Shown: piece by piece, positions 25,672 through 62,630 of the stretch | How the letters are laid out: each line of letters starts with the position of its first letter | Numbering within the stretch: the first letter of the stretch is position 1 | DNA from: a virus | Taxonomy: Duplodnaviria > Caudoviricetes | Reading direction: 5' to 3' (one strand) | Virus record (IMG/VR): IMGVR_UViG_3300010163_000018 | Coordinates: 9,668-73,667 of that record | Length of the DNA stretch: 64,000 nt | The notes under the pieces: model-generated | Told to the model about the DNA's origin: nothing | What the model saw: the letters and a program-made list of their open reading frames with translations, nothing else | Database searches by the model: none | Program-made: the position numbers and the translations under genes

Positions 25672-26274
25672 ATGACTACAAAAGAACAAATCATATCATC
25701 AATAGATGCTATAGATGAAACATGTTTCTTAATGGAAATGTCAATATATAATACACTGGCTGATGCATATGTCAAATCCTTATTGATTATGGAGAATTAT
25801 GATGGTGATGACATTGATAAGTTCTCTATAATTCAAGAAGGTAAGATTCTTGATAAAACAATCGGCAAAGGGAAAGATGAAAATATATTAACTAAAATCA
25901 TTAAATTTATCCCTCGGCTTATTGGAGCATTAATTGATGCTATAAAGAATTCAATAAATAATTTCCGTCGAAAGAGAGCAAATAAGTCCGTTGATAAAAT
26001 AATCATCAATTCTGATCCCAAAGGAAAAGAACTTCTTGAGAAGGCTTTAGAAGAGATAGGTTGTGTTGGAACAGTTGATGACGGTGTCTTGTCAGTTAGT
26101 CGCATTAAATCCATTGAGAAAGATCTGGCCATTGAATTCAAGGATGATGTGAAATTTAAAATAAGTGAATCAGGCATAATGAAGGTAGTATTTCCTTATT
26201 ATAAAATCGATCAAATCATTGATTTTAATAAAGACATAAACATCAAGATTGTTGGCATAAAAAAAAATGTTTAA
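25672..26274 (+). CDS. Leader-bearing head protein, 5' part of a gene split at an A9 tract
   Basis: Conserved leader ending FSIIQEG, then the amphipathic helix ENILTKIIKFIPRLI; stops just after A9 (26259-26267). Confidence 0.75.
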   Translation: MTTKEQIISSIDAIDETCFLMEMSIYNTLADAYVKSLLIMENYDGDDIDKFSIIQEGKILDKTIGKGKDENILTKIIKFIPRLIGALIDAIKNSINNFRRKRANKSVDKIIINSDPKGKELLEKALEEIGCVGTVDDGVLSVSRIKSIEKDLAIEFKDDVKFKISESGIMKVVFPYYKIDQIIDFNKDINIKIVGIKKNV

Positions 26275-27988
26275 CAAACAGAATTATGACAAACTCGTGA
26301 AGTCACTAAAAGAACTGGATCTGTCATTTAAAGGAATTGCTACAAACCAAGCAAATATAAAAGAGAAATCTTTTAAAGATATAAGTGCGTGGGATGATTA
26401 TATGAACACAGTTCTCGACGCATTTAATACGTTCTCTGATAGACTGTCTGTCATAAAGAAAATGTTTGATGATATGGATACTGACATTGACGGTATGAAA
26501 GCACCATTGGGTTCTTTGGTGGATGATATCAAAAACCTTCTTATCAAAACCCCTAAGGATATCAAGCTTATAACAGAACTTGATAAAACAATACATGAGG
26601 TATACGATGTCCTGACAGATCAATCTGCTGACAAATCGAAATATAAAGATTTCCTGTATGTAATACCCGACACAAAGAATCTTGTCAACATCAATAATTT
26701 TGACAATCATCATATAATTGCCGCCATCAATAAATTTAATGATTTTTATAAAAATGAAATCATTAAAAACGCAGGAAAAGATCCCAATGTTATTGCCAAG
26801 AATTCAAATGCTTTTAAAGAAGCAATTAATGAATTAAATAAACAATTCAATGTGGATATAAAAATAAATACGAATGTTAAAAATCTTGGAATGCAGACAA
26901 CGCCAGGTAAAATGAGAGGTGGATCCTCTCGCCAATTAACTGTCTCTAAAACAAAAGGATTTGATCTTGGTGGTGTAGAGATATTCATTCGTAGTGAATT
27001 ATATACGGATTGTATCCAAATGATTCGTCGTTCAGGAAAAATGATATTTGGGCAAGTAATGTGTAGCAGCATCTGTCATGAGATATTCCATAACATATCA
27101 TTTATGATGTTGCATGGTAATTCTGGTCCTGGTAAACTGTTATCGGCTATTACCAGTTTAACATCGGCTATTTTTGATACAGCTATGACTATCGAAAGAG
27201 CGGTATCACAATTCTTGGCAAAACTCGGTATCAAGTCAGAAACCGTCAAATATGAAAATATGATATCTATTATGATTAAAAATGTAACATATTCATCATA
27301 TGATAAATCATTATTCAAGACCATTTGTGACAAAATATTTGATAAAAAGATAGACGAGGTATCATTGAGAGAAGTTGATGGCATTCGTGAAATTCCTATT
27401 GAAGAATTAAAAAAGATGCCAGTCAATGTCAAGAAAATCGTTACTAAAGTTCTGACAATTGGAGTATTATTATTACTTGCATTAGGACGATCTGTGCCAA
27501 CAGTGATACAAATCCCTGCTGCTATTATTTTGGGACTTAACATTAGCTCACTGCTTGGTGGAATCCCACATTTTAGTCACGATAATGAGGAATCAATGGC
27601 GGATGCATTTGCAGCAATGTATAAATTACCAGTTGTATTCGGGGATACTGCGTTGGAGTCTAAAGATGGAAAGAATCGGTTTAAGTATAATAACACGGAC
27701 AACAAAAACGATGAACACCCCGCAACATATGACAGATCAGTTGTTGGTTATAATATGGCGAAAGAAATACTTAATTCTGGAGAAAAAATAAATCCTGAAT
27801 TGAAAGAATATCTCGAATTCATCGTAAAGGAATTTAACGGAGTTAATAAGGTTGAACGTCGGTTCACCAAGGATCAAATCAATAAATCTGCTCCGGAGTT
27901 CAATTCTAATATAAATTCTGCATTGAATGATTTCATTGCCAAACATAATATATCCGTGACTGAATCATCGTTAATATATGATACGTAA
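26267..27988 (+). CDS. HtpX/M48-like zinc metalloprotease, 3' part of the split head-protein gene
   Basis: HEIFH (27077-27091), hydrophobic hairpin, EESMADAFA (27587), HPATYDR (27716); no SD before ATG 26267; paralog of 61005-62630. Confidence 0.75.
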   Translation: MFNKQNYDKLVKSLKELDLSFKGIATNQANIKEKSFKDISAWDDYMNTVLDAFNTFSDRLSVIKKMFDDMDTDIDGMKAPLGSLVDDIKNLLIKTPKDIKLITELDKTIHEVYDVLTDQSADKSKYKDFLYVIPDTKNLVNINNFDNHHIIAAINKFNDFYKNEIIKNAGKDPNVIAKNSNAFKEAINELNKQFNVDIKINTNVKNLGMQTTPGKMRGGSSRQLTVSKTKGFDLGGVEIFIRSELYTDCIQMIRRSGKMIFGQVMCSSICHEIFHNISFMMLHGNSGPGKLLSAITSLTSAIFDTAMTIERAVSQFLAKLGIKSETVKYENMISIMIKNVTYSSYDKSLFKTICDKIFDKKIDEVSLREVDGIREIPIEELKKMPVNVKKIVTKVLTIGVLLLLALGRSVPTVIQIPAAIILGLNISSLLGGIPHFSHDNEESMADAFAAMYKLPVVFGDTALESKDGKNRFKYNNTDNKNDEHPATYDRSVVGYNMAKEILNSGEKINPELKEYLEFIVKEFNGVNKVERRFTKDQINKSAPEFNSNINSALNDFIAKHNISVTESSLIYDT

Positions 27989-28034
27989 ATATCTATATAC
28001 CAATTCAGATAATTTATGGAGGTGAATAATAAAC

Positions 28035-28619
28035 GTGATACCTGATAAAGTAAAACAAAATGTGGATGCCTTAATACAGGAAGTGAGTAATGTTGTACAA
28101 ACAAAAGTATCAAGCGTTCTCGCGGTGTATTCATCAGTGAAATGGAAGAATGTATCATTTACAATACCTACGATACCCGTTCCATCACACAGACCAAGAT
28201 TATCTGGATATAGGGTTTATGTTCCCGGTGCTGCAAAGAACCAGTCGTTCTTCAACAGAAATGTTTTACCTAAACTCAAGGGGTTGTTTATTACGACCCC
28301 TTGTAAAATAAAGGTGGATATATATTGCCCAACACCGAAGTCTTTCTCTAAAGCGCAACAGATACTCGCCGAAATGAGGATACTGAGACCTTGGGTTAAC
28401 ACTGGTGATGTCGACAATTACGACAAAGCAGTATTCGATATGATGCAACCAAATGAAAAACGTGGTCATATCGGAATAATGAGCAATGACTGTCTTATTA
28501 TCGAAAGTCATACGAATAAATATTATTCTGTCAATCCCCGTTATGAGGTTACCATATCATACATGGATAAAGTCCCTGATTCAATTTCATCTACACTGAG
28601 ATTGAAAGATAAATCATAA
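28035..28619 (+). CDS. rusA: RusA-like Holliday junction resolvase
   Basis: HRPR N-terminal motif; GDVDNYDKAVFD and NDCLI acidic motifs of the RusA family. Confidence 0.8.
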   Translation: MIPDKVKQNVDALIQEVSNVVQTKVSSVLAVYSSVKWKNVSFTIPTIPVPSHRPRLSGYRVYVPGAAKNQSFFNRNVLPKLKGLFITTPCKIKVDIYCPTPKSFSKAQQILAEMRILRPWVNTGDVDNYDKAVFDMMQPNEKRGHIGIMSNDCLIIESHTNKYYSVNPRYEVTISYMDKVPDSISSTLRLKDKS

Positions 28620-28646
28620 ATTAAACTAACCAAGGAGGTTATTAAC

Positions 28647-30566
28647 ATGGCAAAAAATACAGATGTATTGAGCCAATTCGCTTCCGCTGGTAATGACGCT
28701 GTCGGTCTTATTAATAGACTTGACGACGCAACCGGTAAATTCCAACCTGGGAAGAGAAAAGGTTCGATTGTCAAAGCCGCACAGGGGAATGTATTTGAAT
28801 TCCCTGTATTCTTTTCAAACAGCATTCCTGTTGATTATGCTGAAGCGGTATCATCATTACTTGAACAAGTATATGCTGCATATCTCCAGATGGCTATATC
28901 AATCAACCCCGTCGTCGATGCCGATTCCATTAAGAACGGACTTCAGTTCGCCGATTACAAAACAAACACCAACAAGTATCTTGAATGTGTTGACAGTGAT
29001 TTCCAGAAGGATGCATGTCATGCTGTCTACCAGGAGGGAGCATACAAATTTGAATTCGACATGATGTCCATTGAAGATAGAGATGCTCGTATCATCAATG
29101 AATCTGTTAATTATCAACCTTTGTCTGAATTCTCACATTTCTTCCAAGAGGCTGAACATCCTGATTCATATTATGAAGAAAGAATCCCACTTCCAAAACT
29201 TGAGACCAATGATGCAACGGGAAGACCGGAACTCGTCCTGTTACATTCCGGATTTTCAAATCAGATGCCTCTATATGATGTCGAACGTGATAAAAATGGA
29301 GAGATCGTTTATGGTACATTAGACGAAGTACGTATGAGACTTGTCAGTGCGGCCAAAGTTGATACAAACGAGACCGATAATGGTAAAAGAAAACAGGAGC
29401 CTGCATATGATGCGTATATAAGATCTGTAAGAAATTATAAACTGGCAATGCCGGCTCAGAGCGAAATAGATAAGCTTTCAAGAGCTGAGGATGATTATTT
29501 GAGAAACAATTCTGATCCTTTAGGAAATAGGCTTGATACTTTAAATGAAAGACGATTTCATGCAGCACGGGCTGATGAAAAGGAGGCCCAGGCTCGTAGG
29601 GCTAACAGTCCATATTACCGTACAAATGATGCTATTTCTACCGGTGCTAATACAGTAGGATCTGTAGCAAACGCAGTTAAAAACACAACAGATGCAATAT
29701 ACAATGTGGGAACTCTTGGTACACGTATCAAGGATACAAAGCTCAATCATGAAGTTCTCAAAGACAGAGTTGCCAATCTTGATACTGATAGGGCTCTCAA
29801 GAAAACTGAAGTCATGGCGAAAACAGCTGCAAAGGCACCTGAATATGTTGATGACGGTAAGTGTGCAAAACTCAATACGATGAAGCCGCTGTTGATGCGT
29901 GTAACGATCAACATGCTCAACAAGGACGAGTCACTCCAGCCTATCAACTACATCGTTGGTGTTAAGACACATAACCGTGTCATTCCTGCAAGCATACTTC
30001 CGGAAGTTGCTCGTTATCCTCTTAAGGAAATGGACAAAATCGCCAGAAAGATCAAGTGGAGAGCTGGAGAAATCAAGTTCTTCAAGGATCTTGTGTTCCG
30101 TATAAAAGAGAAGAAACAGACTGCCGCTGACTCAAGGGATCCCAACAGAAAGTGGTATCGTCGTCTTTATGAACTTGCACATATGAAGGGTGATGCTCCA
30201 GCCACAGCAGTTGTACAGGGCAAGTCTCTGTTTGCAACATTTATTCGTGATAAACAGGGTAAGGGCAATATCAAGAACGGTATGATTCCGAATGCATCGA
30301 TTGTTATGTCTCAAGCTGACGTTGATAACATTAAACGTCAGACAGAGATTAATCTGCTCAAGGGATCAACTGCTAAGACTTTCTGTAGAGAGTTATTCTT
30401 GATAAGCCTTGTTATTATAGACACGGATTCGGAGTCTATTAAGATAATGCTTCCTGATATGAATAATGACTTTGATGTACATTCTCTTGGTGCTGTAAAC
30501 AAGCAGCTTGCAATGCTTGACACAGCCGGTACAAAAACAAGAGACATGTTCAAATTACTTGGTTAA
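28647..30566 (+). CDS. Virion head protein with internal FFQEA site
   Basis: 639 aa, SD AAGGAGG; carries VYQEG, IINES and FFQEA motifs. Confidence 0.6.
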   Translation: MAKNTDVLSQFASAGNDAVGLINRLDDATGKFQPGKRKGSIVKAAQGNVFEFPVFFSNSIPVDYAEAVSSLLEQVYAAYLQMAISINPVVDADSIKNGLQFADYKTNTNKYLECVDSDFQKDACHAVYQEGAYKFEFDMMSIEDRDARIINESVNYQPLSEFSHFFQEAEHPDSYYEERIPLPKLETNDATGRPELVLLHSGFSNQMPLYDVERDKNGEIVYGTLDEVRMRLVSAAKVDTNETDNGKRKQEPAYDAYIRSVRNYKLAMPAQSEIDKLSRAEDDYLRNNSDPLGNRLDTLNERRFHAARADEKEAQARRANSPYYRTNDAISTGANTVGSVANAVKNTTDAIYNVGTLGTRIKDTKLNHEVLKDRVANLDTDRALKKTEVMAKTAAKAPEYVDDGKCAKLNTMKPLLMRVTINMLNKDESLQPINYIVGVKTHNRVIPASILPEVARYPLKEMDKIARKIKWRAGEIKFFKDLVFRIKEKKQTAADSRDPNRKWYRRLYELAHMKGDAPATAVVQGKSLFATFIRDKQGKGNIKNGMIPNASIVMSQADVDNIKRQTEINLLKGSTAKTFCRELFLISLVIIDTDSESIKIMLPDMNNDFDVHSLGAVNKQLAMLDTAGTKTRDMFKLLG

Positions 30567-30581
30567 TGAGGTGGGATTTGA

Positions 30582-31583: not shown

Positions 31584-31601
31584 ACAAAAAATATGTATAT
31601 G

Positions 31602-31630
31602 AATCAACGGGGCGCAATGCCCCGTTGATT
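31602..31630. terminator. Bidirectional terminator between convergent genes
   Basis: AATCAACGGGGC-gcaat-GCCCCGTTGATT perfect 12-bp stem. Confidence 0.8.
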
Positions 31631-31642
31631 ACAATACTAAAC

Positions 31643-31810
31643 TTAATAGTTTACGATGTACGCCTCAGCCGTTGCGCGATCCATACTTGAACGGACGTCG
31701 TCATCGCAAGGAACTTCAATATCCTCTACATCATCAGGCTTACTGAGTATGTGTTCTCTGATGTCTGCAAGAACCATTCCGATGAGTTCACCATAGCTGC
31801 AATTATCCAT
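31643..31810 (-). CDS. Small acidic hypothetical protein, 55 aa
   Basis: Start at ATG 31810 overlapping the upstream stop (TAATG), with GGAGAG upstream. Confidence 0.6.
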   Translation of the reverse strand: MDNCSYGELIGMVLADIREHILSKPDDVEDIEVPCDDDVRSSMDRATAEAYIVNY

Positions 31811-32271: not shown

Positions 32272-32393
32272 GTTAACAACTCCTTTAAAGTTTTAAACGT
32301 AGTCTACAGTACACTTACTATTACCCACGTCAATATTATTATATATAGATTTAGAAAAAGAAAAAATAGAAATACTTTAGACAATAGATATAG

Positions 32394-32409
32394 ATATTAT
32401 TAAAATGAA
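32394..32409 (+). promoter_or_regulatory. Candidate early promoter ATATTATT-N4-TGAA
   Basis: ATATTATT-AAAA-TGAA; same fixed positions at 34720 (+) and 63970-63985 (-), each directly upstream of a non-structural gene. Confidence 0.6.
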
Positions 32410-32422
32410 AGGAGTGATAATA

Positions 32423-46519: not shown

Positions 46520-48526
46520 TTAGCCTCCGATTTCAGTTGAACCTGCATCAGCGTCAACAGTCTTAACAACACCAGCCTTGATATCAGGAACGATTTCAGT
46601 GTTCTTGAAGATTACGCGACCCTGGATACCCTGAACTGCGATTGTCTTGTACTGGGATGATGTTGTAACGAGAGCAGCCTGACCACCTGGATTGTTGATA
46701 TCCTGGTAACCAGCATTCTCAGGTGAGTTTGTAAGGTGACGTGCGAAGCGGAGGTGCTTGTTTGTGATGTGGTGAGGATCCATCGGATATGCAACGATAT
46801 TGAGGAAGTACTCTCTTGACATATCGCCCTCAGCAGAACCTTCCTGGTATGCAGGAATAAGCGTGTATGCATCAACACGGTTAGAAGCAACGACACGAAT
46901 AGGAAGATCGGAATCTGTAACAAGGCCGTAGCTGTGATTCATCTTAACGCCGCCGATTTCTGTAGATTTCTTAACAGTCCATGATACAAAAGGATTGAGG
47001 AGTCTGCAAGCCTTAGGGTTGCCGTATACAACGAAGCCGAGGTTTTCAAGCTTGCCGCGGTCACTGAGCTCGTAGATTACAGAATTGATAGCATTGTAGA
47101 TAGCATTTGATCTGTATTCGAAAGGATCACCAGCAAAGCCGGGAGAGATAGATGTAGGACTGAGGTCTACGTACTCTGTATGAGTATAGCTCTCGAGAGA
47201 CCATATATCCGAATCATAGCCGTCGTACATATCAAACTGCTCATCAAGGAATTCAAGAATTGATTCATCCTCGAACAGCTCCTGATTGATGATAAGCTGC
47301 TGAACAAGTCTGTTGTAGAGATTGAAGTTAAGTGAAGTATTAGCTTCAGTAAAGTCTTCCACAGTGAAAGGAACCTGGAATCTGCAGCCATCGTCGATGA
47401 GGAACTTACGGATTTCAGGATACTCACGGAAGCCGATTGTTCTGAGGTTTGTTTCGTTTGAGATAGTGCCGTTTACATAGAGGCCTGTGATCTGACCGCA
47501 TGCAGAAGCTGTAAGAGTACCCTTAACGAAATCAACGTAACCAGAAAGATGATCAGAGAAAGAAACTGTTTCACCAGTATTCTTGTTTGTTTCCGGATCA
47601 ACAACGGGAAGCTTCATGTTCTCAGTAATACCGCCGTTAAGAAATACGCCGCCTGTCTGAATATCAATAGCAATACCAGCACCGGGGAGCTTTACCTTCT
47701 TACCGTCATACTGAATGTACTGAATGTTGAAGTTATAGGAAAGACGAGTACGCAGTGTCTTCTCGAAAGCGCCTGCAGAGCCCTGAGCTGGATACGGTGT
47801 ACCATCGTCCTGGAGCAGGTGGTTGAACATATCATATTTCTTATTAGGTGCATTTTTGATATCATCGAGCAGGATAGGATCCTTGTCATTGATTCTTACA
47901 CCCTTACCAGCGTTATAGAGCTTCTTCCATGTAGGTGTGCCGTCAGGCTCCTTCTGCCAGTATACATGCGGTACTTCATACTCTTCGCCGGTCTGGTTGT
48001 TTACGAGATACTTGATAAGAATACGCTGTTCGATGTTAACAGAGGATGTTGTCTGAACAGGCATAATCTCCTTGCCGAGGAAGCGGATATACTGCTTAAT
48101 CAGTGCCGGGAAGTCGAGAGTTGCAAGAGGAAGATATGTAGATGTATTGTAAGATTCCTGGATCAGGAAGCTCTTAACAGATTCATCCCACGCCTTGTCA
48201 AGCTGATGAGCAACGCTCTCAAGATGATACTTCTCACCGGGATCTGTTGCAGCATCAGCTGCCTCCATGAACTCTTGGAGAATAGGCTGAAGCATCTCCT
48301 CTTTGTATGAATTCATAATGTCGGGATTATCCATCATCTTCTTGACATCTTTTCTGATATCAACGCCGTTATATGCATCCTTGATATTCATTGCAGCTTC
48401 CTGGAAGTTCTGATCGAAAGTATCGTTTAATGCGTCGAGTTCCGCTTCAGATAATGAATTCACCATATTCATCTGCTCCTGGAACCATGTTCCACGAGTA
48501 CCTACTAATGATCTGTTGTAAGCCAT
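46520..48526 (-). CDS. Major capsid protein precursor
   Basis: 668 aa with high-expression codon bias; prodomain ending FLIQE(124)-SYNTSTYLPLATLDFP, then IMPVQT; located downstream of scaffold-like and protease genes. Confidence 0.8.
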   Translation of the reverse strand: MAYNRSLVGTRGTWFQEQMNMVNSLSEAELDALNDTFDQNFQEAAMNIKDAYNGVDIRKDVKKMMDNPDIMNSYKEEMLQPILQEFMEAADAATDPGEKYHLESVAHQLDKAWDESVKSFLIQESYNTSTYLPLATLDFPALIKQYIRFLGKEIMPVQTTSSVNIEQRILIKYLVNNQTGEEYEVPHVYWQKEPDGTPTWKKLYNAGKGVRINDKDPILLDDIKNAPNKKYDMFNHLLQDDGTPYPAQGSAGAFEKTLRTRLSYNFNIQYIQYDGKKVKLPGAGIAIDIQTGGVFLNGGITENMKLPVVDPETNKNTGETVSFSDHLSGYVDFVKGTLTASACGQITGLYVNGTISNETNLRTIGFREYPEIRKFLIDDGCRFQVPFTVEDFTEANTSLNFNLYNRLVQQLIINQELFEDESILEFLDEQFDMYDGYDSDIWSLESYTHTEYVDLSPTSISPGFAGDPFEYRSNAIYNAINSVIYELSDRGKLENLGFVVYGNPKACRLLNPFVSWTVKKSTEIGGVKMNHSYGLVTDSDLPIRVVASNRVDAYTLIPAYQEGSAEGDMSREYFLNIVAYPMDPHHITNKHLRFARHLTNSPENAGYQDINNPGGQAALVTTSSQYKTIAVQGIQGRVIFKNTEIVPDIKAGVVKTVDADAGSTEIGG

Positions 48527-49219: not shown

Positions 49220-52200
49220 TTACCATGATTCACGAGGATGTTTGATCTTAGAACCTGTGATACGCATGTAATTTTCTTCCATTTTACCTTTAAGACGCAT
49301 ATATTCAAATTTCGTCTTAACATCTTCAAGTTTACTGGAATGATCCAGTTCACGTATCTTCTCATTAATGATTTTGAGCTCTGTTTCAAGCTCATGTTGC
49401 GCTTCCTTTTTGAGTCGCTGCTTGTCTGCAAGTTTGAGACCTTGGATACCAGCATATGCAGCAGCCAGATAAGGTTGTAATGTAAACAGGATACCAGTGG
49501 CTCCTAATTTCAGACCAACCCTTGCAGCTTTATATACTGACGAACGATAGCTCGGATTATCAAGAATCTCAGCTTTAACCTGATCTTCATCCCTTTTGAT
49601 AAGGGAATCGACCGTTTTAGTCAGCCATTGTTTGGTTCTGGTAATGGGCTTAAGTACAGCTCTACCGGTATTAGCAACTTTCTGCACACCTTTCTTACCC
49701 TTCTGCTGAAGAGCCAGGGTTTTACGGTCTGCATCCATTGCTTTTGTAAGTGTGTCCTCCTTAGGAGGTTTTCCAGCACCTTCTCCTTTTGACAGGGGCT
49801 CTTTGGATTCCAAGAACATAAACATCTCCTGAATGGTTTGTCCAGAGGATAGTTTCTGTTTACCGTCCTTTTGGGCGATGGACTCCTTAGTGTCAGCAGG
49901 TTCGTTGCTATTATTATTATTGTTAGAACCCTTGCCGATTCCCTTCTTACTTCCACCTTCATTATGTGAGGAATCGTAAGTGTTGTGATGGGAACTGTTA
50001 TTGTTGGAGTCTCTTGTGGTCTTTCCGGTGGAATGATCATCGATGGTTGTTGTCTTAGTATTGTTGGAGTCCTTATTAAAGGAATTGGTATAGTTGTTCG
50101 TTATGTTGACGACAATCTTTCCATCAGCATCTTTCTTGTTCGGATTGTTTTCAAATCCGGAACCGAGCATATCCCCAAGGGTGTCTCCATCAGTATCCAT
50201 TTTAGCATCAACCGAATCAGCAATGTCATCAATGGGATTTGTAGGAACCCCTTCAGGCAGCGATGTTGGAGTAACTGTTGTCCTGAGATCATCGGACATC
50301 TTAAATCGAGTCTTCATGTACTCAGGTATTTCGCCCTTCTCCTGTTCCATTATTACTTGGAAATCGTCAAGATCGATAATACCATACTCCTTGACATATT
50401 TCTGAATGAACTTCTGTCTCATTTTGCAGCCACGTCTTGCCTCGACCAATATTTCGCTCATGTCATCGAGCGCTTTTTCTGCGGCGTTTAACAGTGTTAC
50501 TGGATTTTGTTTAAGCAGTTCTTGTTTTGACTTGAGAAGCTTGCGATAATCACGAATCGATCTTCTAAGGTCGTCAAACATTTTATCAATGTTTGTGTCT
50601 GTTCCGGCACAATATTCCATAGGAGTCGTTCCTATTGATTTACAAGATTGATCAATCTCTTTCTTCAATTGATCATTGCTTTCTTTAATGGACTTTATTT
50701 TCTCGGAAAGACGTTCTGTTTGTTTTGTAAGAGCGTCCAAATCAGCAGGTGATAGACTCTTCATCTTTTTCTTTGCGATTTTTAATTCTTTACGGGCTTT
50801 TTCGTAGTCTTCTAATGCAAAATTTGAATCCAATAACGTCTTTTCATTATCTTTGTATAAATGATTAAGAGCATTGATCGCCGTTCTCTTGGATGTATGT
50901 TCTGCAGCATATTTATCAGCAACATATTCAGTTCGCTGACGATCATGTTCATTTAATTGATTATGCTGTTTGCTGTCTTTAATGAACTTCTTCGCAAGAG
51001 CTTCTTGACCCTTTGCCTTATCCTCATCATATGAAGGATGTGTTGGACAACCGGCCATAACATTGATATGGTCATATGCAATATGCCCTTCTTCGTGTTT
51101 TAAAGCAAAAGCAGATTTCCACTCTTTCTGCTTTAAAGCTTTACGAGTAATATGAATCTCATATTTGCTGGGGTCAATCTTGAAATTTCCGGTTTCTTTG
51201 TCAATAACATAATCACCATTGGGATCCCTGACAATCTGGTTTGTAACACAGGGTCCGTATATTTTAGCTATATCGTCATCGATCGAAAGTTTAACACGCA
51301 TCTTCTCCTTACCACCAGGAAGATCAATGTCAGTTTTGATTGTATCAGTTTTGGGATCATAATCAAACTTCTTGAGCGTTCTCTTGAAATGAGTTTGTTT
51401 ACTCTCCTGGAATACAAATGACTCTTGTGTTGTTTCGCCTTCATTAGAATCTTTCGGTTCTTCGTCAGGTGTAGCACTCTCAAGAGACTTGATGAAACCG
51501 AGCGAAGGTTCTATCCCAAGAATTTCCTTTGCAATAGATGCGACCTTACGGGTATCATTAGATTCCTTGATATTCTTACCGATCAAGGGATTCATCTTGA
51601 TTCCCTTAACAAGTTTGAGCATATCGTCAATCTTCTCTTGAAGATCTTTAAGAATTTCTACATCACTCGAATTGTACTTACCACAAGAACCACCTTTAGC
51701 AATATTAATATACTTTGCAGCCTGTTTAAGATTTCCCATTGTTTCGGACTTGAATATGTTTATACAAGCATTGTTCGTCCACTGTTTCTTCTTACTGAGG
51801 TCTTCGATTGTTTTCATGTCCCTCATAAGAAGTGAAATAGCAGTATTGAGTCTTTCGTTGTTGGTTTTGGTAGTTGCCTCTTGGAATACATAATCCGGGG
51901 AACCATCATAATATGCTTCTCTTACAAAAGATTCATCCTGGAGGAATTCAAGGTCGTCCTTCAGATCAACGATTCTTTTCGCAATAACAGCGATCTCTTT
52001 GACACGGGATTGAATCTTTGTATTATTGAACAGATTCATGTGTTTAGACCAGTTAACTGGGTTAACCCAAAACAGTTTAACACATGCCCACAAGTCACCA
52101 GTAAGATCATTCAAATGGGTCAACGTTTTAAGTTGCTCATTGGTAAAGTTACCACTCTTACCTTTGATGGCCTTCTTTGTCCATTTATAAACCTGCTTTA

Positions 52201-53929
52201 TATCAGTATGACCTTCAGTAGATCCAGTTACATTTGGGAGCAAGGATAACACCATACCAGCAGTTGTTTTGTAACGATGAACAAATGAATTGTTATTCCA
52301 ACGATGCTTCTTATCCATGTCAACGATCTTTTCCATCTCATCCATCAAAGCACTTACAGCCGTCTGAAGATTCTCACGCCTCTTTTCAACACTGGCTTCC
52401 TGGATAAGGTCCTCGAGCTGTTCATTGAGATCGTTAAATGATTCTCCGATATATGCATCGATAAGGAACGGTGACAGATTTGCATTGTACATCTTGTCAG
52501 AAATCGTTTCGATCTCTTTCTCAACAAGATAACCATACTGTTCACAATACATCATATCAGATATTGACATATCGCCGAAGGAACGTAATTCATCAATAAC
52601 AGATTCTGATACTGTTTTCGAAGTTTGTTTTGTGGTATCATTTGTATCGTTACCGGAACCATCATCATTTTTGTATGCTGCCTTGGTCCGAGAGTTCTTA
52701 TTGATTCTGCCTCTTACATCTTTAACGAATCGATCCTCATCATTAGTCGTACCTCCACGTACATTGTGGGCGATATCGAGATATATGCGTGAATCAAATA
52801 TATTGAAAATTGTAAGAAGTGTATTGTTTGAAATAGATGCATCGGGGTCATTGATGAGGTTAAGTTTGAAGAAGTCTTCAATGAACTTGATCGTTCCTTC
52901 CTTGTCTGATTTGAATGTAGAGAACAGATCATATTTCTCAAATCTCTTAGCACCTTTATTCTGTTTGAGAATTGATTCATATGACTTATGGTAGTCTTCA
53001 CACAAAACCGTATCAAACGGAAATTTCTTAGTATTATTGAAGACTTTCACGAGGATATATGGAACTATGTTTTCGTCCAATTTAATACGTGTCCAGAAAT
53101 AAAAGTCTTTACTAAAGAATTTAAGGAGATCTTCTGTTGTATCACATTTACGCAATTCCATAACCAAATCATCGGTAAATTTTTCAAACTCTTTAGATAT
53201 TACCCACTTCTTTGACTTTTCGTTGTACTTAATGTGTTCAGGTTTTGTCTTCTCGAAGTAATTCACTTCAGCAGCCTCTTGAACCGAGTCATCAACAAAT
53301 ATCTCAATGTCAACAAGATCCTGACGGTTGTATACTCTTTCAATCTCTTTTTCTTCATCCATGTCTTCAGGAAGAGAAATGAGATCATTTTTCATAATAC
53401 CATCAACATAGATTTTCTCATCAAAGATTCTCTCTTCGATATCCAGTTCAGGGATCTCATCAAATTTCAAGGGTTCCGAAAAAGTATTGAGAACGTCTGC
53501 AATCTCGGACGGTTTGACGAATGCATTGAACGTGTATATACCGTTGATGAATTTAGTGAAGTCCTCGAAATTGTCAGCAATATGCTGAAGCATCTTGAAA
53601 CCGACATATGAATCAATTGCTCCCGTGAGGGTATCATTATTTGAATTTACAATAGTCTCGTATACTCCATCAGCGGGATTAATATCCTGAATGGTGTCGT
53701 TAATCATCTGGATTACTGCATTCACTTTAGACTCGTCTTCAAGCCATGTAGGATCAACTGTTTCGAGTCGTGTCATTACTCTTTCAACAATCGGCTCAAG
53801 CTGATAGTCCTCGTCAAGAACAGGAAAGTTCCTGACTTTGAATCCCGATTGAATGAATTCATTTAAGCTGTTTATAGCAGTCTGAATACCGGTGAAGTAT
53901 TCATTTTTGATTATAATATTCTTGCTCAT
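49220..53929 (-). CDS. Large head protein / apparent polyprotein with duplicated domain and HEXXH zincin module
   Basis: VQE218, IQE511, FQE684, FQE842, VKE1181/IME1195, FLE1374; two homologous ~160-aa domains; HEEGH(945-949)...EYVAD(1001). Confidence 0.75.
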   Translation of the reverse strand: MSKNIIIKNEYFTGIQTAINSLNEFIQSGFKVRNFPVLDEDYQLEPIVERVMTRLETVDPTWLEDESKVNAVIQMINDTIQDINPADGVYETIVNSNNDTLTGAIDSYVGFKMLQHIADNFEDFTKFINGIYTFNAFVKPSEIADVLNTFSEPLKFDEIPELDIEERIFDEKIYVDGIMKNDLISLPEDMDEEKEIERVYNRQDLVDIEIFVDDSVQEAAEVNYFEKTKPEHIKYNEKSKKWVISKEFEKFTDDLVMELRKCDTTEDLLKFFSKDFYFWTRIKLDENIVPYILVKVFNNTKKFPFDTVLCEDYHKSYESILKQNKGAKRFEKYDLFSTFKSDKEGTIKFIEDFFKLNLINDPDASISNNTLLTIFNIFDSRIYLDIAHNVRGGTTNDEDRFVKDVRGRINKNSRTKAAYKNDDGSGNDTNDTTKQTSKTVSESVIDELRSFGDMSISDMMYCEQYGYLVEKEIETISDKMYNANLSPFLIDAYIGESFNDLNEQLEDLIQEASVEKRRENLQTAVSALMDEMEKIVDMDKKHRWNNNSFVHRYKTTAGMVLSLLPNVTGSTEGHTDIKQVYKWTKKAIKGKSGNFTNEQLKTLTHLNDLTGDLWACVKLFWVNPVNWSKHMNLFNNTKIQSRVKEIAVIAKRIVDLKDDLEFLQDESFVREAYYDGSPDYVFQEATTKTNNERLNTAISLLMRDMKTIEDLSKKKQWTNNACINIFKSETMGNLKQAAKYINIAKGGSCGKYNSSDVEILKDLQEKIDDMLKLVKGIKMNPLIGKNIKESNDTRKVASIAKEILGIEPSLGFIKSLESATPDEEPKDSNEGETTQESFVFQESKQTHFKRTLKKFDYDPKTDTIKTDIDLPGGKEKMRVKLSIDDDIAKIYGPCVTNQIVRDPNGDYVIDKETGNFKIDPSKYEIHITRKALKQKEWKSAFALKHEEGHIAYDHINVMAGCPTHPSYDEDKAKGQEALAKKFIKDSKQHNQLNEHDRQRTEYVADKYAAEHTSKRTAINALNHLYKDNEKTLLDSNFALEDYEKARKELKIAKKKMKSLSPADLDALTKQTERLSEKIKSIKESNDQLKKEIDQSCKSIGTTPMEYCAGTDTNIDKMFDDLRRSIRDYRKLLKSKQELLKQNPVTLLNAAEKALDDMSEILVEARRGCKMRQKFIQKYVKEYGIIDLDDFQVIMEQEKGEIPEYMKTRFKMSDDLRTTVTPTSLPEGVPTNPIDDIADSVDAKMDTDGDTLGDMLGSGFENNPNKKDADGKIVVNITNNYTNSFNKDSNNTKTTTIDDHSTGKTTRDSNNNSSHHNTYDSSHNEGGSKKGIGKGSNNNNNSNEPADTKESIAQKDGKQKLSSGQTIQEMFMFLESKEPLSKGEGAGKPPKEDTLTKAMDADRKTLALQQKGKKGVQKVANTGRAVLKPITRTKQWLTKTVDSLIKRDEDQVKAEILDNPSYRSSVYKAARVGLKLGATGILFTLQPYLAAAYAGIQGLKLADKQRLKKEAQHELETELKIINEKIRELDHSSKLEDVKTKFEYMRLKGKMEENYMRITGSKIKHPRESW

Positions 53930-53930: not shown

Positions 53931-54773
53931 TTAGAAACCTCCCTCCATAATTATGGAAAGAGCTTCCTTACGAATATCCCCTCTTAACGGAACATGAATC
54001 TTGGACTTGCATTGTTCAAATACAATACTTCCGTTGTCAATACCCATAATCTCATCAGTCGAGAACTGGAAAGCTTCACACACAACCTGCATTGTCTCAT
54101 CCTTCTCGCAACAATACTTTGCCAGTTCCTTAAGGAATACAACAGAACCTTCCATATGTACTGCGGGTTTGATATCTGCTTCTGCACCATCATGCGATGG
54201 AAAGTCCACCATGTCAAACGTAATAACCTTTGACACACTCATATTAGGCTGAGTGGGTGATGCATTAGGAATCATGTTGCCAAGCAAACGAACCGAGAAA
54301 CAAGGTACGGCACCGATATCCATTATTTCAGAATTAACAGATCTACCATTCGCTGTAGCCGGATGCACAACAATATGAGCACGATAACGACTACCCTCAA
54401 GTCGAGGGCGGAATATAAAATGAGAAGAGAGTTCAGGTTCCGGAATAGTCATACGGATGTCTGTTAACTGTTCACCCTTAATGTCCGGATTGGGGTGGTT
54501 CCATTCACCACGCCATTGATTACGGCGAAGAAGATCGCGAATTCTTTCATCTGATGCAATTACAGTATCGATATTATTGCCATCATAACGACGATGCATT
54601 CTGTTATGAACACCAAACGTCATCATTGTTGAATCGAATTCACAGTATGGGAGTCCAGTAGCAGCCGACTTTTTCACAATGTACCCATTAGGAGACAATT
54701 CAGATGATACCGGAGATTCTTGAACAAAACATGCAGTCTCATACTTGTTTGTCTGTGTACTCTTTAAAGCCAT
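53931..54773 (-). CDS. Prohead maturation serine protease (T4 gp21 / phiKZ gp175 type)
   Basis: GEWNHP (H93), CFSVR (S160), TFDMVDFPSH (D187) match the gp21 triad pattern; self sites FVQE19 and HME208. Confidence 0.85.
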   Translation of the reverse strand: MALKSTQTNKYETACFVQESPVSSELSPNGYIVKKSAATGLPYCEFDSTMMTFGVHNRMHRRYDGNNIDTVIASDERIRDLLRRNQWRGEWNHPNPDIKGEQLTDIRMTIPEPELSSHFIFRPRLEGSRYRAHIVVHPATANGRSVNSEIMDIGAVPCFSVRLLGNMIPNASPTQPNMSVSKVITFDMVDFPSHDGAEADIKPAVHMEGSVVFLKELAKYCCEKDETMQVVCEAFQFSTDEIMGIDNGSIVFEQCKSKIHVPLRGDIRKEALSIIMEGGF

Positions 54774-56472: not shown

Positions 56473-56537
56473 AGTAAATACTTCCTTTCACAGTAAATTT
56501 GATTTGTTAATCATTATATAAACGTCAAACAAATACA

Positions 56538-57985
56538 TCATTCTTTGTCGTCAGATACATCTCCAACTCCAAATGAATCAGACATCTGGGCAACTGAATC
56601 GATGTACTCATTGACAGCATCAATAGAATTTGTTATTTGCAACTGAGTTTCAAATATTCCACGCAATGTTTGAGAAATATCTTTTTCAACAGGGAAGAAC
56701 TTATCCGTTCTGGAATCGTTCTCAATTCGCTTTTCATAAATATCACTCAACTGCTTTGACTTTTCACACAGTTTTGCTAACTTGATAGCAAACGTTTCTG
56801 CTTGTTTTCCAAATTCTTCTATCGGTTGATATTTTTGTTTGGTATTGGTCTTCTTCGTGAGTGACTGCAGATGTTTGACATAGTTGTTCAAAACTTCAGC
56901 AGCATCAGGACCATTGAATATTATTTTATTTCCTGTGTCATGTTCCCTCTGGGCATCTATGAGAACACCTGTCCTCTTGGCCTTATCATCAACGATGTTC
57001 CGCTTTAATTCTCCTTTTTCGAATTTATAAGCGATGAATTTCGCAGACTGAACAACAAACGATATCGATGCATCGATCCAATTCATCCACATGTCCAAAT
57101 CAAGAGTGACATATAATGTACCAGTCTTAACATCTATTTTACACAGAACCTTTTCTTCAGGTGTTTGCTCATACTTCAGCAGGTGTATGTTAAAGAATTT
57201 CTTGATCGCATTATATAATTTGCTGATAAAATCTATCGCCTTCTCCATCGCTTTTTTACAAGCGTTGGCAACAGCTTCAATTTTTTCTGCTGCTTTATCA
57301 GCAGCGTCAGCAACTTTAGAACCCACTTCACGCATAGGATCTAATACAGTTTCATCAATCTTCTTGAGAATTCGACCACTGTATTCCGAAACTTTTTGCT
57401 GAATTAATTCTTTTTTATTATTTATGAAATATGCTGTTCCACCAATAACAATTGCTCCACCACCAGCTTTAAGACCAAGTCTCATAAGCTTCTCCCTAAA
57501 ATCAGCCCTTTTCAGTTCTTTTCGGATAATTTCCTTCATTTGTTTTGCGTCCACGTTCTGATCCATGATTGTGTAAAACAGTTCAATCTCACCGGGGGGA
57601 CATTTGAGACAAATCAGTATTTATCTTTTTTGCCTGTTTTTGAATCTTTTTAAGCTTTTTCTCTTGAAGCTTAATCGCATGGACTTCTTGAACATGAGCT
57701 ATTAGTCTTGGAATTAGTTTAATAATGCTCTTCAAGATACTCTCTTTAGCACCCGTCTTTTTATCATTTTGCCTAAACTGGAATTTTGGTTTGCCTTCGG
57801 ATACCCCCCCCCTGTGAAGGTATCGTTTGATGTGCCTCTTGGAATATCTGGAACGAGTCTATGTCTTCACCATCATAGTTTTCAAGAATACATAACGCTT
57901 TATCATACGAATTAAATAGTGCTTCTAAAACGTCATATTCACATTCAAGACACGTCTCACTGATACATTCTAATTGTGTCATCAT
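56538..57985 (-). pseudogene. Leader-bearing head-protein paralog interrupted at G9 and C6 tracts (fragments 57773-57985 and 56538-57566)
   Basis: Removing one base from each run gives one 481-aa frame containing KESILKSIIKLIPRLI, homologous to ENILTKIIKFIPRLI of the 25672 gene. Confidence 0.75.
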
Positions 57986-58006
57986 ATGCTAAATCTCACC
58001 CCTCAT

Positions 58007-59200: not shown

Positions 59201-59219
59201 CCAATACCTCCCTAACTAA

Positions 59220-59744
59220 TCAACCCTTATTGTTGTTATAGTGGTTCTTCTTCTTGTTCTTCTTGTTACCATTATAATGAGGCTGTGTATCAGCAGCCGG
59301 TACCTCAGCAGATGTTGCTTCTTCAGCCACTACGTCAGTATCAGTAATAACATCCGTTACTTCCTCTGAAGGTGTTTCATCTGCCGTTTCTTCAACTATG
59401 GGTTCGTCCTCTTCAGGTGTAGAATTACCAGGTATATCCGTATCACCCTGATACTGACGGGTTTCCTGTGCAATAACCTCAGGGGCTTCTGTCTCATGTT
59501 CCTCTGTTTTGGTTGCCGGAATTTCTGTTGGCTTCTCCAAAACTGGAGTTGGCCTGATATCGGCATCGAAAACCGCATCGATATTTCTTTTAGTTATGAG
59601 ACCAATGCCGTTTGCTCCATATACTCTTAAATTTGAATAATTAAGAATACGACGGATCAAGGGTTTTTCAAGTTCCTGATTGTATACAGGAGCCAGTTGG
59701 TTGATTCCCGGGATAAGTCCCTTTCCGGTAATGTTTACTTTCAT
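59220..59744 (-). CDS. Small protein with compact N-terminal domain, acidic P/T/E tail and basic N/K end
   Basis: SD GAAAGGAG; low-complexity tail. Confidence 0.65.
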   Translation of the reverse strand: MKVNITGKGLIPGINQLAPVYNQELEKPLIRRILNYSNLRVYGANGIGLITKRNIDAVFDADIRPTPVLEKPTEIPATKTEEHETEAPEVIAQETRQYQGDTDIPGNSTPEEDEPIVEETADETPSEEVTDVITDTDVVAEEATSAEVPAADTQPHYNGNKKNKKKNHYNNNKG

Positions 59745-59784
59745 TATTTTAAACTCTCCTTTTCTTCATACTATATTGAACAAA

Positions 59785-60522
59785 TTATGTTCCATCAACC
59801 GCTTTCTTAACCTTTTCGACACTGTAATATGATTCGGATATGAGATCAGTTTTCAATCCCATAGCCATCAAATACATATCAGCAGCCAACAAAGTTGGCT
59901 TATCGTACGCATTCGTTTTAATATCGGCTAATTTGACAGAACCTGTATTGGCAATAGATTTAAGCATGTTATCATACTCTATAACATTATCGCCTCGAGC
60001 ACCCGATATCTCAGATAAGATAATATCTCCACCAACACCAGCAAGCAGTTCGTTTTCGATACCCGTTGTTGTACCGCCTTTAGAATCTCCCTTGGCTGCA
60101 CCGGTCATATCGTCACGATCATCATCACTCAATGCCAGACCCGTTTTCTTAGTGCTGAATTGCTGGGTTCGTTTAGTATTAAGCCATCCCACGAGGACGG
60201 GTTGCTTTGTTCTTATCGGACGGTTCGGATTGCTGGATACGTGGGGGACGTACACATATTCAAATAATTTTATTCCAATAACATCTGCAGCTTTCTCAAT
60301 ATTCTCAAATTTCAGATTTCGAGAACCATCACCGAATTCCTCTATATCAACACGGAAATTACTTTTCTCATCTTTCAGAAAAGCCTCTATCCATGATTTG
60401 AATTGTTGATCGTTCATCGTTTGGAATTTATTTCGGTATTTCTTTGCATTGATACCTGTCGGATCCAATGCCATCAATGTCTTATCTATCAACGCCTCAA
60501 TATTTTTCCGTTTATCAGTCAT
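59785..60522 (-). CDS. Split RNA polymerase beta subunit, C-terminal piece (probably virion RNAP, phiKZ gp149-like)
   Basis: PVLVGWLNTKRTQQFSTKK, RDDMTGAAKGDSKGG, ENELLAGVG...LSEISGARGDN align by eye to RpoB C-terminal regions; embedded in structural genes. Confidence 0.75.
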   Translation of the reverse strand: MTDKRKNIEALIDKTLMALDPTGINAKKYRNKFQTMNDQQFKSWIEAFLKDEKSNFRVDIEEFGDGSRNLKFENIEKAADVIGIKLFEYVYVPHVSSNPNRPIRTKQPVLVGWLNTKRTQQFSTKKTGLALSDDDRDDMTGAAKGDSKGGTTTGIENELLAGVGGDIILSEISGARGDNVIEYDNMLKSIANTGSVKLADIKTNAYDKPTLLAADMYLMAMGLKTDLISESYYSVEKVKKAVDGT

Positions 60523-60535
60523 TTATATCACTTCC

Positions 60536-61015
60536 TTACAATGCAATCTTTCTGATATATAAGCGATTTAATCTATCATAAGAAATTCCTATGATAACAT
60601 GTGCACTTTCATTACCATATCCAAGTCTCTCAGTTCCGGATACTTCCACAACGAGTGCAGTTATACCATCAGAAGTTTTATCAAATCGAACATCAATATC
60701 GAAACCAACCATATCAATGTAATTACATTGATTTATCAATTTCTCTTTGATTTTACCAGGAAGCTTACGATCATCATCATACTCAAACAGATATGATTCT
60801 ATATCAATTCCGAGTTCGGGGATTGATGGATATTGACCGGGTTTCATAAACAACAGCATCAGGATAGTATTGACACCCAATTCAAAGGTTGATAAAACCT
60901 TTGGCTTAAACATCGAATCCGTATCTAACACAACATCGTAGTTGAGTGTTTGAAAAACTTGAGGGATCCTACCATTGATTTCTTCAAGGTAAATACCTTT
61001 AGTATCAAGAGCCAT
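60536..61015 (-). CDS. gp25-like baseplate/sheath-initiator protein
   Basis: ILMLLFMKPGQYPSIPELGIDIESYLFE matches the gp25 family motif; start reassigned to 61015 after GGAGGTG. Confidence 0.7.
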   Translation of the reverse strand: MALDTKGIYLEEINGRIPQVFQTLNYDVVLDTDSMFKPKVLSTFELGVNTILMLLFMKPGQYPSIPELGIDIESYLFEYDDDRKLPGKIKEKLINQCNYIDMVGFDIDVRFDKTSDGITALVVEVSGTERLGYGNESAHVIIGISYDRLNRLYIRKIAL

Positions 61016-62630
61016 AGTATTCACCTCCATTGATGAAATCATCAGTGAAACTTTCCGTAACAACAACCCCTGTCTTATCCACAAAATTCTTCAATGTTTC
61101 CTTCAAATCCTTTGCTGCTTCCGGATCAAGTTTCTTTGCCTGTTTTCTATCATTAGGATTATCGATATCTTCAATACCTTCATGAAGATCGACAATGTAT
61201 TGGAGATATTTCCTTACCGCCGGTTTTAATTTTTCTCCTGACGAGAGTACCTGTTTAGCCATTCGATACGAAGTCAGTTCTCTGTCAAAGTTCAACGGAT
61301 GTTCATCCTTTGTAGAATTGCTTATCTGTTGATCAATACGTCGCATCTTCTTTGCTTTTTGAGCGTTCTGTTTATTGAGTTTGATTTGCCTATTGAATGA
61401 GCTTAAATGAATAGGGAGTTTATACATTCCCGCAAACAGATCACAGAAGTATTCTTCCTTAACGGTAACACTTATACCAAATAGGGTCATTACTTTCTTC
61501 TTCAACATTGATAAAGCCATGATTGCCATACACACGGTTCCTGCAATGGCAGCGATGGAACTACCAACAATGAAACCAATACCAGCTAACAATATAGAAC
61601 ATACTGCCCCAATGATCTTACCGGTCTTTCCTATATTAACGACTTTTTTGATCAATAGGAGTTGTTCGATATATTTATCCATTTCTTCTTCATTGTTTGT
61701 TTTGTCGGCATTGTTTTGAACATCTGATTCAAACTTTTTAATCGCCGCAGTATTGTCCTTTATCTGGGCCAATACATATAAACGATTAGAAGTCCGTTTC
61801 TTATCAATCTCTTTTTTCTTAATATTAAACATATTCATGAATCTATCAATAAATGATGATATAATCGAAGACGAAGAAACGACATTCTTTGACTCACCCA
61901 CAGAAGATATAGTCTTCTGTATATCCGCGTGGAGTCGTTTGTTTCTAATATCCATCATATGTACAATGTTATGATAAATTTCATGAAGAGTTACTGCGAC
62001 AAAAGATTGACCGAATAACGTCCTATCGGCAGGACATATTTCCAATACCTGACGTGGATTAATGTTCAGAGTAACTAACAACCCACCCAATTGGAAACCC
62101 TTTGACTTAGATATCGTGAGTTTTCCAATATTGTCTCCCGTAGGGAATACGGTTCCAATGCCTTGCTTCTCACTTACATATATTTTGAATTTACAATCAA
62201 ATTGTTTTTCCAATTCATTGAATCCTTCAGCAAATCGACCATTGGGTTTTCTGAATTCATTCCGGACATTTTGTACTATCTCATCTGGATATTTTGATCC
62301 AGGAGCAAATGTATCAATAGCCTTTAATTCACCACGTTCTTGTCTCCTTTTCAACTCATCAAATTCTTCATTAAATGCAACCTTTGAAAATGATTTATTG
62401 AAACATTTGATTGCTTTTAAGATGTGCTTATTTTCAAATTTAAACACATCGAGTTCTTTTGAGGAACCCGGTTTAAAAAACCCTTCTTGGAAACAATCAT
62501 ATTTACTTTCGAGATCTATATCGTCAGAATATTCCATGATCATTTGCTGTTTGATATACATCTGATCAATTGAATTTCTAACTTCATCGATCATCTCGAG
62601 ACTGCATTCATTAATGAATGATAAATCCAT
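61005..62630 (-). CDS. Leader-bearing HtpX/M48-like membrane zinc metalloprotease
   Basis: Diverged leader ending DCFQE49-G; HEIYH (61971-61985), two-TM hairpin, EEYFCDLFA (61440-61457), HPLNFDR; C-terminal VVTES. Confidence 0.75.
   Translation of the reverse strand: MDLSFINECSLEMIDEVRNSIDQMYIKQQMIMEYSDDIDLESKYDCFQEGFFKPGSSKELDVFKFENKHILKAIKCFNKSFSKVAFNEEFDELKRRQERGELKAIDTFAPGSKYPDEIVQNVRNEFRKPNGRFAEGFNELEKQFDCKFKIYVSEKQGIGTVFPTGDNIGKLTISKSKGFQLGGLLVTLNINPRQVLEICPADRTLFGQSFVAVTLHEIYHNIVHMMDIRNKRLHADIQKTISSVGESKNVVSSSSIISSFIDRFMNMFNIKKKEIDKKRTSNRLYVLAQIKDNTAAIKKFESDVQNNADKTNNEEEMDKYIEQLLLIKKVVNIGKTGKIIGAVCSILLAGIGFIVGSSIAAIAGTVCMAIMALSMLKKKVMTLFGISVTVKEEYFCDLFAGMYKLPIHLSSFNRQIKLNKQNAQKAKKMRRIDQQISNSTKDEHPLNFDRELTSYRMAKQVLSSGEKLKPAVRKYLQYIVDLHEGIEDIDNPNDRKQAKKLDPEAAKDLKETLKNFVDKTGVVVTESFTDDFINGGEYYGS

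Follow-up and report, generated by a model that had tools for sequence, protein, structure and literature searches.

We analysed a 64,000-nt stretch of DNA (hereafter the window: one strand, positions 9,668 to 73,667 of the IMG/VR virus record IMGVR_UViG_3300010163_000018, Duplodnaviria; Caudoviricetes) and found that it encodes two diverged paralogues of a zincin metalloprotease family related to a head protein of phiKZ-like and AR9-like jumbo phages. Our preferred reading, to which we give a probability of roughly 0.6, is that both proteins belong to this head-zincin family and are made late as pro-proteins, packaged, trimmed, ejected and then active at a membrane. An earlier reading, made from the letters of the window without database searches (the sequence-only reading), had described the two as HtpX/M48-like membrane zinc proteases that appear to be virion cargo. 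The data below lend partial support to that interpretation, namely to the M48-like character of the motifs and, by analogy, to packaging and trimming.

The longer and shorter proteins, P0001 and P0002, are clearly paralogues as judged by their similarity, which lies far beyond chance: a single BLASTP alignment (26% identity, E 7e-34) spans every motif that the sequence-only reading had named. From the N-terminus, the aligned pairs (P0001/P0002) are FDNHHIIAAINKFN/FENKHILKAIKCFN, LNKQF/LEKQF, LTVSKTKGFDLGG/LTISKSKGFQLGG, FGQ, HEIFH/HEIYH, EESMADAFAAMYKLP/EEYFCDLFAGMYKLP, HPATYDR/HPLNFDR and SVTES/VVTES. The last of these pairs bears out the claim that both proteins carry a C-terminal VTES.

The sequence-only reading also held that both proteins carry an N-terminal leader. 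This is true of the short paralogue and not of the open reading frame (ORF) then taken as the first gene, since the leader in question lies in a separate ORF just upstream (Table 1). That upstream ORF aligns to the N-terminal 200 residues of homologues of 785–788 aa (P0003–P0005). A run of nine A residues marks the break in reading frame, and deleting one base within it joins the two parts (...GIKKMFNKQ...) into a protein of 771 aa. In three related contigs with the same gene order, the orthologue of the long paralogue is an uninterrupted ORF (788, 777 and 768 aa), and tblastn with the 777-aa orthologue recovers the window copy in two frames (25660–26271 and 26330–27964). Because the orthologues are intact and the window copy is split over two frames at the A9 run, we take the predicted long zincin gene to be 25672–27988, encoding about 771 aa. 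Another gene with the same leader, the phiKZ_IP-like gene described below, is spread over three frames (tblastn), with switches at a G8 run (about 57806–57813) and a C run (about 57595–57600); its orthologue in contig L018 is one 503-aa ORF. Since this second leader gene is likewise broken at homopolymer runs, homopolymer errors in the assembly are the likeliest and simplest cause of the frame breaks, as far as the sequences allow a judgement. All of the motifs first reported are present, and what has to be revised is the extent of the first gene and the place of its leader.

To delimit the family, we searched several collections. A word-indexed search yielded 42 homologues, all metagenomic and none named, and an exhaustive profile search yielded 148 clusters at 50% identity, ending sharply with no tail of weaker matches. 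By tblastn there was no match, even at E 10, in 50,697 phage records. When 185,579 species genomes were searched with the family, only three matches were found, all on short contigs of metagenome-assembled genomes (MAGs) from unrelated phyla, and IMG/VR contigs carrying the family reach 294 kb in length. For these two reasons we assign the zincins to a jumbo-phage family; it is phage-only and closed.

Conservation was counted in a family alignment of 104 sequences, whose members share only about 25% identity. No variation at all is seen in HExxH (both His and the Glu), in the Glu and Asp of E-x-x-[C/A/S]-D, in the Tyr and Pro of MYxLP, in the Arg of [H/Y]P-x4-R or at one further Tyr. Conservation is 90% or more for the Asn that follows HExxH, for the second Glu of EE, for the HP proline and, in the C-terminal (V/L/I)-T-E-S, for the Glu. 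At the variable position of E-x-x-?-D, Cys occurs in 86 members, Ala in 15 (including P0001, with ESMAD) and Ser in three. Between HExxH and ExxAD, 93/104 members have a hydrophobic segment (Kyte–Doolittle at least 1.6 over 19 aa), which is placed about 35 residues before ExxAD.

These motifs follow the layout of M48 peptidases. HExxH sits on the active-site helix (residues 153–196 of the structural model described below, pLDDT >90), the Glu of the downstream E-x-x-A-D motif is probably a zinc ligand, to go by homology, and the C-terminal H-P-x4-R is seen as HPATYDR and HPLNFDR, compared with HPPLDKR in HtpX. The motifs come in the order found in E. coli HtpX and with the same internal spacing: in that protein HEISH is at 139, EFHAD at 222 and HPPLDKR at 276, and the transmembrane (TM) helices TM3/TM4 separate the first two. 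The gap from HExxH to ExxAD is about 175 residues in our family and 83 in HtpX. Unlike bacterial M48 proteins, the phage-encoded zincins have no N-terminal TM helices, are flanked by prohead protease sites, and in half of the members carry Tyr in place of the His of the HP motif (H in 55, Y in 49; P in 95/104). An hhalign comparison of the whole family alignment with the single HtpX sequence aligned HExxH alone and was set aside. In a few members there are sub-threshold Pfam matches to SprT-like and DUF3810, both of zincin type. Taken together, the sequence comparisons support assignment of the family to gluzincin metalloproteases with an M48/HtpX motif layout, while its members give no score on the Pfam M48 model.

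We modelled residues 51–527 of P0002 on 104 sequences, with a predicted local distance difference test score (pLDDT) of 89.6 and a predicted template-modelling score (pTM) of 0.89. A first model, of P0001 on 31 sequences, had been discarded (pLDDT 63.5), because the N-terminal helical bundle dominated its fold searches. Every solved structure that matched the catalytic part was a gluzincin, with modest scores. In an exhaustive structural alignment, neprilysin (4cth), PepO (9kn2 and 4iuw) and ECE-1 (3dwb) scored Z 5.9–6.3, and the M48 members ZMPSTE24, BepA (6sar), 3c37 and Ste24 scored 5.9, 5.5, 5.3 and 5.3, respectively. A second structural search placed E. coli BepA (M48; 6ait_C) at the top (Z 6.0, root-mean-square deviation 3.9, 133 aligned), more than one unit above the next match. 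Nuclear-receptor ligand-binding domains matched the helical insert (model residues 177–336, Z 6–7) and were treated as a generic helical sandwich. Predicted viral structures (BFVD) supplied the decisive link: the best Foldseek match was the 'zincin protease' of Bacillus phage AR9 (E 2.3e-6, probability 1.0). Lower in the ranking were virion structural proteins from the Klebsiella phages Miami and Eowyn, Ralstonia phage RP12 and Pseudomonas phage PhiPA3, along with proteins of uncultured myoviruses that bear the name Peptidase M48 or BepA.

Profile comparison leads to the same group of phages. The catalytic core was aligned by hhalign to AR9 g051, SPN3US gp45, PhiPA3 gp086, phiKZ gp84 and an AR9 paralogue at 92% probability in local mode (E 6e-7) and 96% in global mode (E 2e-9), a link that needed trimming to the core, as the untrimmed comparison gave 14% probability. 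The alignment is collinear over about 300 columns and spans HExxH, the hydrophobic stretch, ExxADxFA and HP...R. Searched with the Pfam M48 model, AR9 yields three matches, of which one, to an AR9 paralogue, exceeds the cut-off; SPN3US gp45 scores 16 bits and PhiPA3 gp086 9.5 bits. In GenBank, AR9 g051 is annotated as 'zincin protease, pfam01435', SPN3US gp45 as 'virion structural protein 1' and PhiPA3 gp086 as a virion structural protein similar to phiKZ gp84 and 201phi2-1 gp145. We conclude from the profile alignments and the model that the family branches deeply within the jumbo-phage head zincins (phiKZ gp84, PhiPA3 gp086, SPN3US gp45, AR9 g051), the whole group being M48-like.

The kind of protein is thus one already known. 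A zincin-like head protein has been described in phiKZ-like phages (PMC7824862), and mass spectrometry has identified SPN3US gp45 as a head protein that is cut by the prohead protease gp245 to remove a 20-aa propeptide (PMC10052503, PMC5694885); this propeptide has been likened to the capsid targeting sequence of T4 (PMC5694885, PMC10052503). The translated gp45 reads ...AVASE↓S at residue 20 (arrows mark the position after which cleavage is measured or predicted). Literature searches on Chimalliviridae metallopeptidase, phiKZ M48 and AR9 zincin protease found nothing, and the papers on 'gp84' concerned other phages.

Our family and the phiKZ/AR9 head zincins share HExxH, then E-x-x-A-D-x-F-A, then HP/DP...R, in the same order; they share a jumbo-phage setting near head and virion RNA polymerase subunit genes, SPN3US gp45 lying three genes from RNA polymerase subunit gp42 and the short zincin two genes from an RNA polymerase beta-subunit fragment; and they share an N-terminal propeptide ending in x-x-E, which is predicted here. 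The leader of our family is a module of 50–56 aa, compared with the 20-aa propeptide measured in SPN3US gp45; the other cultivated homologues have a short x-x-E stretch near the N-terminus as a putative propeptide end. Further differences from the cultivated proteins are a helical insert of about 110 aa after HExxH, HEIFHN in place of HEIGH, a predominance of Cys in ExxCD, a conserved and putatively cleavable C-terminal tail, two paralogues per genome and, in some members, extra domains after the C-terminal site. What is new is a large uncultivated branch with a modular leader, the ~110-aa helical insert, an HtpX-like hairpin, a C-terminal tail predicted to be cleavable, paralogue pairs and polyprotein-style fusions.

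A hidden Markov model (HMM) of the leader (50–56 aa) identifies exactly four ORFs in the window at E <1e-18, the next best being at E 0.047. These four are the two zincins, a 534-aa protein adjoining the prohead protease, and the phiKZ_IP-like gene. In the 534-aa protein the leader ends SIFQE↓A, and near the C-terminus IILE↓SYFD... opens an acidic tail, in the same style as in the zincins. Neither zincin has a signal peptide or an N-terminal TM segment.

We defined a strict cleavage-type motif, hydrophobic-[Q/M/T]-E-[A/S/G], and estimated expected counts by shuffling. The motif occurs exactly twice in each zincin, at the leader end (IIQE↓G and CFQE↓G) and before the C-terminal tail (VTE↓S), against an expectation of about 0.3. 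Five are present in the major capsid protein, compared with 0.29 expected, and six large proteins outside the head module (813–22778) have one in about 6900 residues. The prohead protease itself shows the strict motif close to either terminus (CFVQE↓S at E19 and IIME↓G at E277), which fits the self-cleavage reported for SPN3US prohead protease gp245 (PMC5694885). This presumed processing enzyme matches Pfam Peptidase_S80 at E 7e-5 (22.6 bits, cut-off 23.4) and S77 at E 0.005.

Sites of this type are kept across the family. Of the 95 members having any upstream site, 73 have a hydrophobic-x-E-[ASG] site 10–29 aa before the domain, and the (V/L/I)-T-E C-terminal site is kept in 98/104. The tail that follows is usually 10–20 aa, acidic and aromatic; in 14 members it is at least 40 aa, reaching 414 aa, with further sites. 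Extensions of 190–414 residues past TE↓S are seen in P0022, P0026, P0045, P0051, P0060, P0062, P0063, P0067, P0077, P0079, P0083 and P0108. The extension of P0022 and P0026 is an immunity-type domain, SUKH/SMI1-KNR4, and the long members carry extra hydrophobic-Q-E↓S sites beyond the tail, which gives them the look of polyproteins. A Pfam search of nine long homologues gave no name for the domains past the C-terminal site.

Genome position is conserved as well. In most of 46 IMG/VR loci the zincin lies among orthologues of the head module (protease, polyprotein and, where the flank reaches, capsid protein). In more distant phages there is a single copy, and by position it corresponds to the short paralogue; the long one has another conserved neighbourhood, with a 450-aa protein on one side and RusA and a virion structural protein on the other. 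Both paralogues occur together in two related contigs.

Packaging and trimming of both zincins are well supported by analogy, because of the SPN3US gp45 precedent, the two boundary sites, the shared leader, the nearby protease and the conserved head-module position. The proposal that the proteins are packaged as pro-forms and trimmed at both ends, made in the sequence-only reading, thereby receives indirect backing: the strict motif is at both boundaries, sites are found family-wide, the protease lies in the module, and SPN3US gp45 is cleaved.

Table 1. Positions in the window of the two zincin genes, their motifs and neighbouring genes
Feature	Position	Strand	Evidence
N-terminal 200 aa of long paralogue: shared leader (residues 1–56) and linker	25672–26274	plus	leader HMM E 6.6e-29
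Long paralogue, leader end SIIQE↓G	25828–25842	plus	
A9 homopolymer, reading-frame break	26259–26267	plus	sequence read
Long paralogue, catalytic body (P0001, 573 aa)	26267–27988	plus	
Long paralogue, HEIFH	27077–27091	plus	
Long paralogue, hydrophobic hairpin	about 27428–27568	plus	
Long paralogue, ESMAD	27590–27604	plus	
Long paralogue, HPATYDR	27716–27736	plus	
Long paralogue, VTE↓S, then 7-aa tail	27956–27967	plus	
Major capsid protein	46520–48526	minus	
1569-aa head-module polyprotein	49220–53929	minus	
Prohead protease, S80/S77 type, presumed processing enzyme	53931–54773	minus	phrog_3014 E 4.3e-10, phrog_207 E 1.5e-5
Third leader-bearing head-module gene, 534 aa	54868–56472	minus	leader HMM E 9.1e-20
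Fourth leader-bearing gene, leader and phiKZ_IP-like body	56538–57985	minus	leader HMM E 2.1e-19 on 57773–57985; weak phiKZ_IP match
RNA polymerase beta-subunit fragment (split)	59785–60522	minus	phrog_3233 E 1.6e-43
Short paralogue (P0002, 541 aa)	61005–62630	minus	
Short paralogue, VTE↓S, then 15-aa tail	61050–61061	minus	
Short paralogue, HPLNFDR	61281–61301	minus	
Short paralogue, EYFCD	61440–61454	minus	
Short paralogue, hydrophobic hairpin	61476–61628	minus	
Short paralogue, HEIYH	61971–61985	minus	
Short paralogue, CFQE↓G	62481–62495	minus	
Short paralogue, leader (residues 1–49)	62484–62630	minus	
C2H2 zinc-finger and DUF7487 endonuclease-like gene	62650–63393	minus	phrog_15137 E 4.7e-44

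We envisage the following course of events. Each zincin gene would be translated late, as a pro-protein consisting of a helical leader of 50–56 aa, the catalytic body and an acidic/aromatic tail of 7–15 aa. The leader, the tail or both would direct entry into the assembling prohead, where the S80-type prohead protease would cut after Glu in hydrophobic-(Q/T)-E↓(G/S) at each end, so that mature forms of about 477 aa and 708 aa would remain in the head. For this phage we infer packaging and cleavage by analogy with the cultivated relatives. On infection, the zincins would exit together with the virion RNA polymerase and the DNA. Their hairpin, which lies between HExxH and ExxAD and is comparable to TM3/TM4 of HtpX, could then seat the active site at the membrane, and the enzyme would cleave a substrate there. 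This scheme resembles that of the T4 internal proteins and Alt (with their capsid targeting sequence) and of the phiKZ/SPN3US ejection proteins, in which an N-terminal peptide is cut after Glu by a homologous prohead protease and the cargo exits with the DNA (PMC5694885), steps that are predicted for the zincins. In contrast to such cargo, the leader here is a folded module of 50–56 aa common to four genes, a second site would remove a C-terminal tail, and the cargo is a putative membrane-type metalloprotease.

Several observations weigh against this reading. PF01435 gave no match for P0001 or P0002 at E ≤10, none in 31 family members at E ≤1 and none in the 73.7-kb record, and searches of Pfam, PHROG and PDB sequences, with single proteins and with the family profile, found no meaningful match. 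The M48/HtpX-like assignment in the sequence-only reading holds for the motifs, for the best solved structure (BepA, at a modest Z) and for homology to AR9 g051, and fails on the Pfam M48 score. With the good model, Foldseek returned nothing from the PDB at E 0.001 or better. Z scores to solved structures all fall under the tool's safe level, and gluzincins of family M13 score similarly to those of M48. The family HMM (HMMER) has no match in AR9, phiKZ, PhiPA3 or SPN3US, and therefore the tie to the cultivated family rests on profile–profile and fold comparison. One caveat concerning the cleavage-type motif is that it was read from the same genes, which makes its enrichment partly circular. 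In minimal gluzincins, an autoinhibitory strand can occupy the active-site cleft, and the conserved C-terminal strand of our family could be a structural or autoinhibitory element and not a cleavage site, although an autoinhibitory strand would be compatible with cleavage at TE↓S. Finally, capsids do not usually store proteins with a membrane hairpin, and this hairpin may be no more than a buried part of the fold.

What else could the zincins do? Iyer et al. (2021) proposed that the conserved zincin-like metallopeptidase of group 1 jumbo phages is a maturation protease (PMC7824862), and the two proteins might similarly be packaged and act inside the prohead as a second maturation protease, trimming or clearing scaffold and propeptide fragments. 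Beyond that proposal of exactly this role for the group 1 zincin (PMC7824862), the invariance of the catalytic residues and the placement of the genes in the head module, beside the prohead protease and the polyprotein, speak for it. However, the candidate boundary sites fit the motif of a Glu-specific serine protease, which makes a second specificity unneeded; the hydrophobic hairpin, present in nearly all members, has no obvious use in a capsid; and diverged paralogues with C-terminal domain fusions resemble variable cargo more than a core assembly enzyme. For these reasons we rate this explanation lower than packaged and ejected cargo and regard it as unlikely.

Less likely still are two explanations that remove the proteins from the capsid interior or from catalysis. 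Proheads of the T4 type begin assembly on the membrane, as textbooks describe, and the zincins, with their hydrophobic hairpin and HtpX-like motif layout, might never be packaged and might instead insert late into the host cytoplasmic membrane, acting in an HtpX-like manner, for instance on membrane proteins of the host or where proheads are initiated on the membrane; the Glu sites would then be coincidental or serve turnover only. Their lack of a signal peptide or N-terminal TM segment argues against such a course, as do the sharing of the leader with a phiKZ_IP-like protein, the conserved sites at both domain boundaries, the presence of a homologue in purified SPN3US virions and the annotation of the PhiPA3 homologue as virion structural; on balance we consider it improbable. 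The zincin fold could also have been kept in inert proteins that serve as structural or channel-forming components of the head or ejection apparatus, a role in which the large helical insert and the hairpin could be structural. For a pseudo-enzyme, though, catalytic and metal-binding positions that are invariant in 104 sequences at such low identity would be unexpected, and we give this idea very little credence.

The window is part of a 73.7-kb IMG/VR virus record with an estimated completeness of 27% (CheckV). It bears hallmarks of a phiKZ/AR9-type jumbo phage, including the capsid protein, the prohead protease, an RNA polymerase fragment, very large proteins of tail type and further large proteins. 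The zinc-finger/DUF7487 gene is the immediate upstream neighbour of the short zincin, both in the window and in closer relatives, and a homologue of this gene is found within the 10-kb flanks of most related contigs. The polyprotein contains, at residues of about 843–1190, a small zincin-like segment (HEEGH...EYVADKYA); we considered it as a third member or the true gp84 orthologue and rejected it, as hhalign detected no relation beyond HExxH.

The lineage is an uncultivated one of the ruminant gut, according to the IMG/VR contigs and one MAG match from sheep colon. The three MAG contigs with family matches (L063–L065) come from Clostridia (sheep colon), Bacteroidales and Spirochaetaceae; we rejected an inference of host from them, as three short contigs in three phyla are probably mis-binned phage DNA. 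For a Gram-positive host we found no evidence.

A broader idea concerns modular addressing. The folded leader and the short, cleavable acidic tail might load interchangeable payloads into the capsid, comprising the two M48-like proteases (as membrane-inserting enzymes), the internal-protein-like protein and, in relatives, SUKH immunity domains attached beyond the C-terminal site, with the ejected proteases cutting membrane-bound host sensors or defence proteins at the site of entry. This is speculative, and we hold it to be rather doubtful; if true, the phage would bring with it a counter-defence protease made and packaged in advance.

Jumbo phages of the phiKZ-like and AR9-like kinds have a conserved zincin, which is located in the head where this has been tested. 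The family described here makes its logic easier to read, with invariant M48 motifs, a clear hairpin, both ends marked by candidate prohead protease sites and a leader common to other cargo. The marked ends and shared leader therefore provide predicted boundaries for the mature enzyme and link the phiKZ gp84 family to membrane proteases of the HtpX type. This central claim extends published knowledge. If delivered into the cell, the zincins would constitute a pre-made protease acting before any phage gene expression, which, if true, bears on how jumbo phages handle envelope-associated defences.

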